Shown here: positions 3,450 through 23,490 of the stretch, piece by piece
How positions within the stretch are numbered: position 1 is the stretch's first letter
Layout: every line of letters starts with the position of its first letter
Origin: Candidatus Latescibacterota bacterium
Lineage (GTDB): Bacteria; Krumholzibacteriota; Krumholzibacteriia; WVZY01; JAKEHA01
Direction: 5' to 3'
DNA: 64,000 nucleotides
Assembly: GCA_963707635.1 (NCBI GenBank)
Contig: OY970173.1
Span: forward strand, 1,664,001 to 1,728,000
The notes under the pieces: generated by a model
Databases searched by the model: none
Seen by the model: only the letters and a program-made list of their open reading frames with translations
Told to the model about the DNA's origin: nothing
Made by a program: the position numbers and the translations under genes

Positions 3450-3544
3450 GGGAATGGATGGGCCCTGGTGGACCTCGGGGACTTCAAATCCCTTAGTCGG
3501 GCGAGACCGTCCGAGGTGGGTTCGATTCCCACACATTCCCGCCA
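3450..3544 (+). tRNA. selC: tRNA-Sec (UCA)
   Basis: GGGAATGG...ACATTCCC-G-CCA extended acceptor, anticodon arm GGGGA-CTTCAAA-TCCCT, long variable arm TCGGGCG-AGAC-CGTCCGA, T arm GTGGG-TTCGATT-CCCAC. Confidence 0.92.
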
Positions 3545-19050: not shown

Positions 19051-20861
19051 CCAGGAGAACAAAGATGAAGGTGGCGAAGGGAACCAGCACGAAAGCGGCG
19101 GCCGCTGCGACGCCGGATCGTTTCGACGACGTGCTCGAAGACATCCGTCGGATCGCGGAGGACAAGGGCTTCGTTCTGAACCACGAGATCGACTCGCTGG
19201 TGGGGGACGACTTCACGCCCGAGGACATCGTGGTCCTGTACGATCGTTTGAGCGAGGAGAAGATCGACTTCTTCGACTCGCCGGAAAAGGCGCGTCTCAA
19301 AATCGACGCGCGCAAGCGCCGCGAGGAGAAGGAAGAGCAGAAGACCGAAGAGGAAGTCAAGGCGGTCATCCGCTACGACGACCCCGTGCGCATGTACCTG
19401 CGCGAGATGGGGAAGGTGCCGCTGCTCGACCGCGAGGGCGAAGTCGAGATCGCCAAGCGCATCGAGCAGGGCCAGATCCTGATCGCGAAGGCGGTCTTCT
19501 CGCTGGATTCACCGGTGCGGGAGCTGCAGAGGCTCGCGCGGACCGTCGAGAAGGGCGACATGCGTCTCGACGAGGTGGTGCAGGTGGAGACGGGCGGGAT
19601 CGCCCCGTCGGCCACCGGCAAGAAGGAGCGCCAGATGCGCTTCCGCCCGGTCAAGAAGATCGCGGCGTTGCGCAAGGAGATCGTCGAGGTCCAGAAGAAG
19701 CTCAAGCTCAAGAAGAACACGACCAAGCGGCCGGCGCTGGAGCGCTCGCTCGAACTGCGCCAGGCGAAGCTCTTCGAGGAGTACATCAAGCTCCAGCTCA
19801 ATCCGAAGCAGCTGGAGCGCATCGTCGAAAACATCCGCGTCACCCGCGACCGGCTCAAGGATTACGAATCGAAGCTCGGCGAGTACGAAGAGTTCGTCGG
19901 GCTCACCTACGACGACATCCTCGCGCACGTGAAGAAGCTCAAGGGCGGCTCGCGCCGGCGTAACGTCAAAGTCGACGGCAAGGGGATGTGGTCGCTCGAG
20001 ATGCTGGAAGACTTCGAGCGCAAGATGCGGGCGTTGCGCGCCGAGATCAAGGAGATCGAGAAGGAAGAGAACATCTCGATCAAGGATCTCGACAAGATCG
20101 TGGACAGCATCCGCAAGGGTGAGATCCAGGTCCAGCGCGCCAAGAAGGAGATGATCGAGGCGAACGTCCGTCTCGTCATCGCCATCGCGAAGCGCTACAC
20201 CAACCGCGGGCTCGAGTTCCTCGACCTGATTCAGGAGGGCAACAGCGGGCTCATGCGCGCGGTCGACAAGTTCGACTACCGCAAGGGCTACAAGTTCTCC
20301 ACCTACGCGACGTGGTGGATCCGCCAGGCCATCACGCGCGCGATCGCGGACCAGGCGCGCACCATCCGCGTGCCCGTGCACATGATCGAGGCCATCAACA
20401 AGGTCTCCCGCGCGCAGCGCAAGCTCGTGCAGGAGAACGGCCGCGACCCGACCCCGGAAGAGGTGGCGAAGAAACTCGACTACCCGCTCGACAAGGTCAA
20501 GAGTGTGATGAAGGCGAGCATGGAGCCGATTTCGCTCGACCGGCCGATCGGCGAGGACGAGGACTCCAACCTGTCCGACTTCATCGAAGACACGTCGGCG
20601 GCTTCGCCCGCGCAGTCGGCGTCCCACGCCATGCTGCGCGACCAGCTCAACCGCGTGTTGAGCACGCTCACGCGTCGCGAGGAGAAAGTCATCCGCCTGC
20701 GCTTCGGCCTGGGGGATGGAACGCCGCGCACGCTGGAAGAGGTCGGCACGATCTTTAATGTCACGCGCGAGCGCGTGCGTCAGATCGAGGCGAAGGCCCT
20801 GAAGAAGCTCCAGCACCCGAGCCGGGCGCGAAAGCTCAAGGGCTACACCGAGATCATATGA
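19047..20861 (+). CDS. rpoD: RNA polymerase primary sigma factor
   Basis: [43 protein letters not shown]. Confidence 0.98.
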
Positions 20862-20867
20862 TCGATT

Positions 20868-20900
20868 GTCGGGCGTCGACGCGAGTGGTCGACGCCCGAC
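20868..20900 (+). terminator. Hairpin downstream of rpoD (possible terminator)
   Basis: 13-bp stem GTCGGGCGTCGAC/GTCGACGCCCGAC; no U tract. Confidence 0.55.
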
Positions 20901-20963
20901 GCGCTCCCTCCAAGTTCGACGTCTCCACGCCACGATTGCGCAGGGCCCACGCGTTAAGGATGT

Positions 20964-20993
20964 TTGACGCCAGGGCGAACGTCGGGGTATGCT
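20964..20993 (+). promoter_or_regulatory. Sigma70-type promoter of the intron-containing tRNA
   Basis: TTGACG-18 nt-TATGCT, ending 10 nt before the tRNA 5' end. Confidence 0.65.
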
Positions 20994-21034
20994 CCGGCGA
21001 CAGGGCCCATAGCTCAGGGGTTAGAGCAGCCGGC

Positions 21035-21412
21035 TCAACGCAGTGAATCTAAGTTGAGACGAGGGTTGTGTAGCTCGGCGTGGCAGTTGTGACAGACTAG
21101 AATGCACTTGTGCACCTCCGCCAACACTGAATCCAGCTTTCGGTTGGAGAGAGATCGTATGTCCAACTTGAAATGCTTCTTCTTGGCGCCAGGGGTGTGA
21201 TGAAAGGCGAGCGCGGCCAGGTTCTTGTTGTATCCGCAAATCGAGCAGCGACCGCCCGCCTTCTTGACTAGTTCGAGCTTTCTAGCCAGTCCTCGCCGCT
21301 GTTGTGCTGCGTAACTCTGATGGTGGTCGTTCTTGCAGGGAATCGAGCAGAATCGAGATTGCCGGCCTCGCAGACGGGCACCGCACACGATGCAGTTAGA
21401 CTTAATGGTCAT
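21035..21412 (-). CDS. Intron-encoded Zn-finger HNH endonuclease (putative homing endonuclease), antisense to the intron
   Basis: 125 aa with CIVC-x-FCSIPC, then CSICG...FHH...KCILVCHNCHAELH. AT-richer than the flanking genes. Confidence 0.85.
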   Translation of the reverse strand: MTIKSNCIVCGARLRGRQSRFCSIPCKNDHHQSYAAQQRRGLARKLELVKKAGGRCSICGYNKNLAALAFHHTPGAKKKHFKLDIRSLSNRKLDSVLAEVHKCILVCHNCHAELHNPRLNLDSLR

Positions 21413-21639
21413 AACTGTAATCTACGCTCAATATGATTTGATTGCCAAGGGCTGCCTGGCGAGTAATCGCCAGGGCATAGCCTGCCAAACTCGGGGAAGC
21501 CTAAATCGAGTGACACGGTAATCCCGAGCCAAGCTCCGTCAGGAGAAGGTGTAGAGACTAGACGGCAGGCACCCCACGGGGGTGAAGGGATAGTCCAGCC
21601 CACGAACTCGAAAGGGGCAGCGAAAGCTGTCGTGGGACG
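21036..21639 (+). mobile_element. Group I self-splicing intron (IC3-like) inserted after U33
   Basis: IGS GGGCTG at 21449-21454 pairs with exon CGGCT through a U-G wobble. P2 CCTGGCGA-GTAA-TCGCCAGG; P3 GCCTGCC/GGCAGGC; P AAACTCGGGGAA; Q AATCCCGAGC; R GTAGAGACTAGA; S AAGGGATAGTCC; terminal G at 21639. Confidence 0.93.
21419..21448 (-). promoter_or_regulatory. Putative promoter of the antisense HNH gene (leaderless)
   Basis: Minus strand reads TTGGCA-18 nt-TAGATT-6 nt-ATG; no room for an SD sequence. Confidence 0.55.
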
Positions 21640-21765
21640 CATAACCGGTCGCGCCCAGGTTCAAATCCTGGTGGGCCCACCAAGTTCCAGTCGCAGAGAG
21701 TTGAGCGTGCACTTCGGCACGTTGGTTGACCATATCGGAGGGAGCCACGCCGGCAGCGGCACACC

Positions 21766-22482
21766 ATGACCGACCTCCGCCGCGACATCAGCCTCTTTGT
21801 CAGCGTGGCCCGCATCGAAGCGGCGCTGCACGCGAACCACGTCACCCTCCAGAGACTGCCGCAGGAAATCGCCGCGATCGATAGCGCCCTGGCCGCGCTG
21901 GAGGCGAAGGAGAAGGCGTCGCACGCGGCGTTCGAGGAGATGCAGAAGCGGCGGCGCGAGGTGGAGCGGCTGATGCGCGAGCACGAAGATCACCTGCGGA
22001 AGTGCCGAGGCCAGCAGTCCCTGGTCAAGACCAACGAAGAGTACACCGCCATGCTCAAGGAGATCGCTCAACTCGAGCAGTCGATTTCCAACGACGAGGA
22101 GCAGATCCTCGTCCTCATGGATCAACTCGAACACGCGCAGCGCGAAGCCGCCGGGGCGACGGAGCTGTACCAGATCGAGCACGCGCGGCGCACGAAGGAG
22201 CGGCAAGCTCTGGAGGCGCAGGCGGAGTCGCTCGCGGGTGAGACCGCCCGCCTGACCGCGGAGAGGCCGCGAATCCTCGCCGAGATCACGCCGGCGCTCG
22301 TCAAACGCTACGAGCGCGTCGCCGGAAAGCACCGCGACGTCGCGGTCACGCGGGTCGAAGCGGAGCACTGCGGCGCGTGCCGCCAGCAGCTCCCGCCGCA
22401 GGTCGCGGTCGAGGTGCGCAAGAACGATCAGTTCCTCACCTGCCCGGCCTGCGGGCGCATCCTCATCCACTATGCAGATTGA
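21766..22482 (+). CDS. Coiled-coil C4-type zinc ribbon protein (DUF164/CT398-like)
   Basis: Long coiled coil followed by CGAC...CPACGRIL. Confidence 0.9.
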   Translation: MTDLRRDISLFVSVARIEAALHANHVTLQRLPQEIAAIDSALAALEAKEKASHAAFEEMQKRRREVERLMREHEDHLRKCRGQQSLVKTNEEYTAMLKEIAQLEQSISNDEEQILVLMDQLEHAQREAAGATELYQIEHARRTKERQALEAQAESLAGETARLTAERPRILAEITPALVKRYERVAGKHRDVAVTRVEAEHCGACRQQLPPQVAVEVRKNDQFLTCPACGRILIHYAD

Positions 22483-23118: not shown

Positions 23119-23490
23119 CGGTCCGAGCGGGCGAGATGATCGCGGGCGGCTGCGCGCCGCTCGAGGAAAGTCCGAGCACCACGGAGCGGGATGCTGGATA
23201 ACGTCCAGCGGAAGCGATTCCAGGGAAAGTGCCACAGAAAACATACCGCCTACTCCCGGGCAACCGGGACGGCAAGGGTGAAAAGGTGAGGTAAGAGCTC
23301 ACCGGGCTTCCGGCGACGGCGGCCGTCATGGTAAACCCCATCCGGTGCAAGACCAAATAGGAGAGCAGAGGCGCTCCGCCTCAGTATGACTCTCGGGTTG
23401 GTTGCTCGAGGTGTCCGGTAACGGACATCCCAGACAAATGATCATCCTCCTTCGGGAGAACAGAACTCGGCTTATGTCCCGCTCGGACCG
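23119..23490 (+). ncRNA. rnpB: RNase P RNA, type A
   Basis: GAGGAAAGTCC, GAAAGTGCCACAGAAA, GGTAAACCCC and ACAGAACTCGGCTTA conserved blocks; P1 CGGTCCGAGCGGG/CCCGCTCGGACCG. Confidence 0.96.

Follow-up and report, generated by a model that had tools for sequence, protein, structure and literature searches.

A putative antisense HNH homing endonuclease gene in the P1 loop of a group I intron that splits tRNA-Ile2 in a Candidatus Latescibacterota bacterium

The tRNA-Ile2(CAU) gene of this bacterium, which encodes its AUA-reading isoleucine tRNA, is interrupted by a group I intron whose P1 loop carries, on the opposite strand, a gene for a small zinc-finger and HNH protein. This protein is probably a homing endonuclease that acts on intron-less tRNA-Ile2 genes and thereby spreads the intron. 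Judged from sequence evidence, such a function is likely in view of the layout of the locus, its recurrence, a covarying RNA stem, purifying selection on the reading frame and the patchy distribution of alleles. The arrangement, found again in many uncultured bacteria, is that of an intron-encoded homing gene, with the reading frame in a peripheral loop, a fixed insertion site and empty alleles in kin. In the following, the window denotes the whole stretch of 64,000 nucleotides that was analysed, and positions refer to it unless stated otherwise (Table 1).

The split tRNA-Ile2 gene and its setting

In its intron mode, ARAGORN placed a split CAU tRNA with a 604-nt intron at positions 1685003-1685682 of the genome. 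Default ARAGORN did not call the gene, and this explains why Ile2 genes are missing from annotations. The window tRNA has C4-G69 and C5-G68 without a C1-A72 mismatch, and we take these two pairs to be the identity elements that assign a CAU tRNA to Ile2 (lysidine). Since separate fMet-type and Met-type CAU tRNAs are also present elsewhere in the host genome, the interrupted tRNA is Ile2 and not fMet or Met. The host genome (G000) furthermore contains a TilS-family gene (PF01171 match, E 4e-47). The interrupted gene is the sole tRNA-Ile2 found in this single-contig, 96% complete genome, so splicing of the intron is likely required, and the pre-tRNA is predicted from its sequence to self-splice.

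Besides the split tRNA, the window contains dnaG and rpoD, genes for a zinc-ribbon and an RNase H-like protein, all named from their proteins, and the RNase P RNA. The last of these is of class A and lies at 23124-23489 (301 bits); a tRNA-SeC (3450-3544) and a tRNA-Asn (314-388) are also encoded in the window. A 13-bp perfect GC-rich inverted repeat without a T run is situated 3′ of rpoD (20868-20900) and could serve as a shared terminator of the rpoD and antisense nuclease transcripts.

Table 1. Features of the split tRNA-Ile2 locus (positions in the window)
Feature	Position	Strand	Remark
Predicted sigma-70 promoter of the tRNA gene	20964..20993	+	converges on nuclease promoter
tRNA-Ile2(CAU) 5′ exon	21003..21035	+	ends at U33, the 5′ splice site, position 33/34 (ARAGORN with introns)
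Zn-finger and HNH endonuclease gene (putative)	21035..21412	-	125 aa, ATG start; in P1 loop
Group I intron	21036..21639	+	604 nt; ends in omega-G at 21639; Rfam RF00028 52.9 bits
P1a (extended P1 stem), 5′ strand	21039..21060	+	same bases are the last ORF codons on the other strand
7-base target-core copy TCATAAC	21409..21415	+	over ORF start codon; candidate autorepression operator
Predicted antisense sigma-70 promoter	21419..21448	-	-35 at 21448-21443, -10 at 21424-21419, 6 nt before ATG
P1a stem, 3′ strand	21425..21445	+	shares bases with the -35 and spacer of the antisense promoter
Internal guide sequence (3′ strand of P1)	21449..21454	+	P1 pairs fixed in 118/118 loci
Ribozyme body, P2 to P9	21455..21639	+	conserved P3/P4/P7 elements; Rfam alignment; invariant core positions over 104 loci
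tRNA-Ile2 3′ exon	21640..21682	+	CAU anticodon through encoded CCA

The antisense HNH protein

A previous, sequence-only reading of the locus had taken the whole interval between the 5′ splice site and the guide sequence for a minus-strand ORF of 125 codons plus its upstream region. This description is exact, as the interval runs from 21035 to 21448 and the internal guide starts at 21449. The stop codon of the ORF is completed by the 5′-exon base U33 (21035). Among 143 loci with a 5′ exon, the stop codon lies over U33 in 80, inside the intron in 23, and is reached through the 5′ exon in 40. The GC content of the ORF is 54% (GC3 65%) compared with 63-69% (GC3 79-91%) in four neighbouring genes, in agreement with the earlier remark that it is AT-richer than host genes.

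The CxxC finger and HNH module that had been claimed are both present and conserved, with C7/C10/C22/C26 in the finger and C56/C59, H71/H72, C107/C110 and H111/H115 in the HNH module. Over 116 distinct intron-borne copies, C7, C26, C56, C59, H71 (116/116) and C110 are invariant, while C10, C22, C107, H72 (114/116), H111 (115/116) and H115 (114/116) are nearly so; conservation of the catalytic histidines, which had been set as a test of the proposal, was thus borne out. The ORF family shows about 50 near-invariant residues, and the median dN/dS over 36 pairs (dS 0.05-1; the window copy is in no pair) is 0.12, with no value above 0.5. As judged from these substitution rates, the ORF is under purifying selection. 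Together with the near-invariant residues, the intact frame in the window and the conserved promoter described below, this makes it scarcely credible that the ORF is a dead passenger or the shadow of an RNA structure, even though its last codons and promoter overlap the P1a stem and some family members are broken.

A homology search yielded 357 proteins at E<=0.001, of which the best 120 share 66-78% identity, so the ORF is not a product of chance. A profile search gave 22,042 representatives at E<=0.001, 217 of them at E<=1e-30, which indicates a tight clade inside a very large HNH group. HNH families of PHROG match the ORF (best phrog_2255, E 6e-19), and the Atlas neighbours of the protein are viral HNH clusters (0.95-0.97). 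Pfam gave no HNH match to the protein. Three other assignments were rejected, namely PLATZ, a sub-threshold Pfam match on the Cys finger (18.9 bits against a cut-off of 25), DUF6705, which gave only a weak Pfam match, and RAD51, the sole PDB match by single sequence, where E 0.6 indicates chance.

In an AlphaFold model (pLDDT 89.9), the protein folds into a finger, a long helix and a beta-beta-alpha core made of strands 68-72 and 103-107 and helix 108-115. A histidine base and metal ligands stand in the beta-beta-alpha order of HNH nucleases and are accompanied by CxxC zinc sites. The top structural neighbours are HNH nucleases as well, at weak scores (Z<=3.9, rmsd 3.4-6.5 over 59-69 residues). 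Foldseek returned nothing at E<=0.001, its matches lying at E>=0.25.

Prediction of a homodimer gave a score of 0.70, compared with 0.00 for the best of three controls. In the calibration, scores at least this high were obtained for 20 of 30 solved homodimers and for 1 of 23 single chains, the present prediction differing from the calibration set in its use of a custom alignment and zinc. The dimer runs showed 100% contact agreement with pLDDT >=83, and the interface is formed by residues 61-67 and 107-124, many of which are conserved. On this model, the protein is predicted to form a symmetric two-fold homodimer, while the score may reflect likeness, since solved HNH dimers exist.

The dimer bears on the mode of cleavage. 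The same homing role could be played by a monomeric or single-site nickase, with homing via nick-initiated recombination, and we regard this as a lesser but serious possibility. I-HmuI, I-HmuII, I-BasI and I-PfoP3I are described as nickases (PMC3428280), the best PDB sequence matches of the window protein are T5 nicking endonuclease chains (E 0.016), and the Gme nicking HNH ranks first among its fold matches (Z 3.9, below significance). The predicted two-fold dimer is formed via conserved residues, however, and the target arm is an inverted repeat. Moreover, the protein is without a separate long DNA-binding domain, so that two copies would supply the specificity. Where the sequence-only reading left nuclease and nickase side by side, a double-strand-cutting dimer is therefore favoured by the predicted structure as somewhat more likely, and the nickase becomes less so.

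Recurrence of the layout

The survey covered the best 80 of 90 genome loci and the best 80 of 225 metagenome loci. In 147 of these 160 close-homologue loci, the ORF lies in an Ile2 intron at the same site, and always antisense; this layout is seen in 77/80 of the best genome loci (72 complete, 5 partly seen) and in 70/80 of the best metagenome loci. An association of homologues with tRNA introns, which the sequence-only reading had proposed as a test, is therefore evident. By record title, the hosts are mostly Anaerolineae together with many Patescibacteria lineages. No Bdellovibrionota hosts are claimed, as one such MAG (G103, locus L052) is 1.1 Mb in size and its protein groups with Patescibacteria, so that the label is likely wrong; loci L057 and L073 also come from Bdellovibrionales-titled MAGs, the element again grouping with Patescibacteria.

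Twelve of the 13 exceptional loci adjoin a CAU tRNA, a tRNA half or an intron. Six genes are free-standing directly upstream of an intron-less CAU tRNA (L049, L088, L153, L161, L164 and L170), and four are free-standing beside an ORF-less intron copy next to a tRNA cluster (L150, L162, L084 and L167), these ORF-less introns being called by sequence and ARAGORN at scores below the Rfam gathering score. The remaining three are L154 with a circle-type junction, L157 beside a tRNA 3′ half, and L151 without a tRNA. Downstream of the tRNA in L088 there is also a LAGLIDADG-like ORF.

All 11 viral loci are free-standing; tRNAs occur within 1.5 kb in 10 of them, and the most similar one, L001 (54%), lies directly against a CAU tRNA. 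Beyond this phage HNH gene, a second, incomplete tRNA 3′ half with its own promoter-like site is located at L001:1390-1340 (minus), and the 3′ half in L157 is similar to that of L001.

Group I introns at position 35/36 of tRNA-Asn(GUU) carry in P1, on the sense strand, genes for a sister family of HNH proteins that are 40-45% identical. This family is represented by L209, L211, L212 and L213 (about 1447-2109, ORF orientation) and by a shorter member in the host genus (L174, G001:C29:4726-7956). Catalytic positions are altered in L212, L213 has an internal stop, and in L210 the sister gene is free-standing beside an ORF-less Asn intron. The main difference between the Asn and Ile2 arms is the anticodon.

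In the order and family of the host, introns also occupy the same 33/34 site of tRNA-fMet (L180-L183, in G033, G019, G028 and G024, respectively). Two of them have an intact sense ORF and two deleted remnants. The fMet intron ORFs (L180, L183) lie on the sense strand and differ from the antisense HNH ORF; we presume them to be I-Ssp6803I-like.

RNA anatomy of the intron

The Rfam Intron_gpI match spans 21436-21613, its score exceeding the gathering score of 50, and the relatives L012, L040, L052, L154 and L178 reach 51-78 bits on RF00028. Family introns are 591-684 nt long with a median of 606 nt (n=134), and the core of the window intron is 71-72% identical to that of the fMet introns at 33/34 from the host's order and family. 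The four classical bacterial tRNA intron classes belong to subgroup IC3 (10.1101/2020.01.27.920355). In P1, the pairs +1 pyrimidine-G, U33-G, C32-G and G31-C are invariant across the 118 loci.

P1 is extended by a stem, P1a, in which the first 25 bases of the intron pair with the 28 bases preceding the guide sequence. The mean energy of this duplex is -16.2 kcal/mol with its own 3′ strand compared with -7.8 kcal/mol with swapped partners (n=118), and the own partner is among the best 5% in 85/118 loci. The stem is also present in the MFE fold of the window intron and is kept, capped by a short loop, in the ORF-less intron L178 of the host genus and in the RNA contig X11. That own-partner pairing beats the swaps indicates a ribozyme that has adapted so that the ORF is looped out.

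In L154, omega-G is joined to a base aligning as intron +3, between two units that are 90% alike. Proteins P0042 and P0120 read through into the antisense of the intron 3′ end, which indicates junctions at +3 and +1. The Azoarcus intron is described as circularising after base 2 (PMC13168695). By their sequence, the junctions in L154, P0042 and P0120 may represent circles of excised intron, assembly chimeras being possible as well.

Public RNA data gave no evidence of this organism, as no run contained half of the sequence words of the locus. In the four RNA runs that were mapped, the ORF was covered by no contig, the covered parts being exons and ribozyme of other organisms. Contigs with joined exons were rejected as evidence of splicing, as their sequences differ from the window; their probable source is intron-less tRNAs in other organisms.

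Two further variants were noted. In L015/L207, the Ile2 intron has the antisense HNH gene in P1 and, inserted in the 3′ part of the ribozyme, a sense 203-aa LAGLIDADG-like ORF whose motif was read by eye. In L179 (G013:C5 near 390171-390340), the Ile2 gene has the intron 3′ half only and lacks U33, so that it is either an assembly error or a dead allele.

Predicted antisense expression

Within 20840-21780, two promoter-like sites were detected, those of the tRNA and of the antisense nuclease, while 0.3 is expected from shuffles. Across 122 distinct loci (seven others were dropped, having no guide sequence or start by pattern), a TAnnnT box stands 5-7 nt before the ATG in 110, and an SD-like motif is found in only six. 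Against the sigma-70 consensus, the loci have 3.4 mismatches on average, compared with 6.0+/-0.09 in 200 shuffles. With the -10 box some 6 nt upstream of the ATG and SD motifs scarce, a leaderless mRNA is predicted; an SD is present instead in the free-standing relatives L151, L157, L162 and L167. The suggestion that antisense coding allows expression independent of the tRNA precursor gains support from this conserved predicted promoter.

Each position of the TCATAAC copy outside the start codon is conserved in 109-115 of the 122 loci. I-TevI is described as repressing itself via a mimic of its homing site (PMC2988022). By analogy, the target copy over the start codon would let the protein repress its own gene, to which we give an even chance at best. 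RNA pairing with the Asn116 codon is possible but was rejected as the sole explanation of why AAC next to the start codon is conserved, since AAC is kept in 17 loci whose Asn116 codon is AAT, where the C is unable to pair. An inverted-repeat operator was rejected too: a second half-site (TATG/TACG/TAAG type) is present in most loci but absent in at least 38 of the 122, and it may be RNA structure, since it persists in the ORF-less L178.

Target site and specificity

Neither the target core GCTCATAAC nor D-stem bases -12 to -9 vary among the 110 intron junctions. Read as DNA, the anticodon stem forms an inverted repeat, a symmetry fitting for a dimer. The same 11-base core occurs, within different flanks, in the intron-less fMet gene of the host. 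Therefore, specificity must come from the flanks, and recognition likely extends outward. The sequence-only reading had named intron-less CAU tRNA anticodon loops as the target; on these sequences, recognition is likely confined to the anticodon arm of Ile2 and does not take in all CAU tRNAs.

In five of the six loci with a free-standing gene upstream of an intron-less CAU tRNA, pair 31-39 of that tRNA is altered. Four of these loci have T31-A39 and one has A31-T39, and L161 keeps the usual pair; the tRNA of phage L001 has T31-A39. For comparison, 11 Ile2 genes were taken from the order to which G404 belongs, few of the genomes having been checked for the nuclease; T31-A39 occurs in none of them, G-C in seven and A-T in four. 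Since the six free-standing genes beside intron-less CAU tRNAs form one clade (98/96), their altered tRNAs count as one event. The altered 31-39 pair fits an immune allele that arose in about two independent events, and these free-standing genes are candidates for intronless homing.

Combined, the data are best explained by the following mechanism. The predicted convergent sigma-70 promoter inside P1 would produce a leaderless nuclease mRNA, and the dimer would read the anticodon arm as an inverted repeat around the invariant core, the flanking bases sparing the host's fMet gene. A break of both strands in the intron-less allele would then be repaired with the intron allele as template, and the intron insertion itself would destroy the target site. 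The core copy over the start codon may add autorepression.

Alleles, mobility and phylogeny

Of 208 genomes from the host phylum, 2 contain a close family member, and both belong to a single genus. Among those of the 17 genomes of this genus that could be assigned, G000 and G003 have an intact element, G010 an ORF-less one and G013 a half intron. The allele of G009 was read as empty, and G001, G011, G012, G015 and G016 are empty by abutting exon hits. Among loci L184-L205, 21 empty Ile2 alleles were read. The class of G101 comprises 301 genomes with three intact copies (one of which is the seed), one copy with an in-frame deletion and five members of the sister family. Four family copies are broken by TAA or TAG stops. 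L053 and L080 were rejected as broken copies: they contain only TGA stops, several at conserved Gly, and their flanks are open under table 25. By sequence, their hosts likely read TGA as Gly.

This distribution bears on why the nuclease is kept. Strong purifying selection on the ORF, distant relatives in phage tRNA clusters and free-standing relatives beside altered tRNA alleles would also be expected if the nuclease served mainly to keep out incoming DNA such as CAU tRNA genes of phages or plasmids, or to kill cells that have lost the intron in the manner of an addiction factor, homing being a by-product. We consider this improbable, as copies are rare and patchy, in the host phylum as in the class of G101 with 3 intact/301, and include broken and ORF-less ones, a pattern that fits the gain-decay-loss cycle of selfish genes.

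Distances correlate most strongly between ribozyme and protein (rho 0.64), compared with 0.39 for exon and protein and 0.31 for exon and ribozyme (n=104, with kin being non-independent). This co-divergence, together with the circle-type junctions, which suggest that the intron RNA may persist, could point to a protein that has the intron RNA as its partner, either as a guide-dependent nuclease or as a splicing maturase. The sequence-only reading had raised such a role as speculation, and it is very improbable on the present evidence. Thirteen close relatives are free-standing, nine of them without an intron found in the locus; ORF-less introns exist at the same site; the protein has no RuvC domain and the locus no variable guide segment; and co-divergence is itself expected from co-transfer.

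The proteins nearest to the window copy come from Chloroflexota (73-74%). The genes of L150, L162, L084 and L167 nest within intron-borne Chloroflexota copies (99/98, 99/94, 100/97), which indicates one escape from the intron (supported 99/94, 100/97). At the base of the Ile2 family, neither of two trees placed a free-standing or an intronic ancestor.

A broader reading is possible, though we hold it only tentatively. Here, an HNH lineage of about 120-aa dimers would read anticodon arms as palindromes, from antisense genes in Ile2 and sense genes in Asn, and would throttle itself through start-codon mimics. It would follow three lifestyles: intron-borne, free-standing by an ORF-less intron, and free-standing by an immune intron-less tRNA.

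Comparison with known systems

The closest layout is that of the Synechocystis PCC 6803 fMet intron, which lies in the anticodon loop of a CAU tRNA and has the I-Ssp6803I ORF in P1 (PMC3073962; PMC1995217). I-Ssp6803I is described as a PD-(D/E)xK enzyme of 150 aa whose gene and the tRNA are co-transcribed from a single start site (PMC11622646). The window intron resembles this element (class fMet.2Ug) as an anticodon-loop intron of a CAU tRNA with a nuclease ORF in P1. It differs in that the nuclease is an HNH protein of 125 aa, is encoded antisense with its own predicted leaderless promoter, and resides in Ile2. By its HNH motifs, orientation and tRNA, the protein is not a member of the I-Ssp6803I family.

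Williams lists 21 bacterial tRNA intron settings and remarks that introns above ~400 bp may hold protein genes; that text names no ORF family or orientation, while the intron class may stand in its Table 1 or Fig. 3 (10.1101/2020.01.27.920355). Like Azoarcus Ile2.5Ug, the window intron is a U-1/omega-G intron in the Ile2 anticodon loop. Unlike the classical Ile2 intron at position 5 (after the anticodon), it is inserted at position 2.

Antisense homing genes are described in myxomycete nuclear rDNA group I introns, where the His-Cys box genes I-DirII and I-DsqI are expressed from their own promoter and full-length intron circles occur (PMC9548176; PMC3073962). The window gene likewise runs opposite to its intron with its own promoter, here predicted. 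I-DirII and I-DsqI, in contrast, belong to eukaryotic rDNA and not to a bacterium or a tRNA, are His-Cys box enzymes and depend on Pol II expression with spliceosomal introns.

The window protein has sequence kin in phage HNH families. As with I-HmuI, I-BasI, I-TslI, I-PfoP3I and I-TevIII, an HNH nuclease lies in or beside its target gene, and the free-standing copies recall SegB and other free-standing phage homing genes near tRNAs (collaborative and intronless homing), where the gene stands beside its target. The window protein differs from the phage intron enzymes in its other Zn-finger and HNH build and its predicted dimer. Nickases of the I-HmuI type have separate DNA-binding domains beside the HNH core. 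Pfam gave no such domain in the window protein and the PDB no sequence match to the I-HmuI family, distant kinship being possible. T4 intron enzymes, too, are described as having their own promoters (PMC2988022). The introns of the phage HNH enzymes interrupt phage protein genes, with none listed in a tRNA in the 2007 compilation (PMC1995217). Unlike RNA-guided HNH proteins of the IscB/Cas9 type, the window protein has 125 aa, consists of HNH only without RuvC, and has intron-free relatives; from these sequence features, it is judged not to be RNA-guided.

The same compilation names one bacterial tRNA-intron homing enzyme, a PD-(D/E)xK protein, and HNH enzymes only in introns of phage protein genes (PMC1995217). 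In the openly readable full-text literature that was searched, no account of HNH genes inside bacterial tRNA introns came up.

Implications

The element would add a second, unrelated and widespread homing solution for bacterial tRNA introns. It also provides a bacterial case of antisense homing-gene expression, here predicted, which was previously known from nuclear rDNA. Two questions become testable in this family, namely how a protein gene is expressed from within a tRNA precursor that is not translated and is rapidly processed, and which way genes pass between the free-standing and intron-borne states. If the dimer cuts both strands, this 125-aa site-specific nuclease would be of interest as a tool. 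If the multi-isotype, three-lifestyle reading were true, the family would contain one of the smallest site-specific double-strand nucleases and would offer a natural series of every step in the formation and dissolution of a mobile intron.
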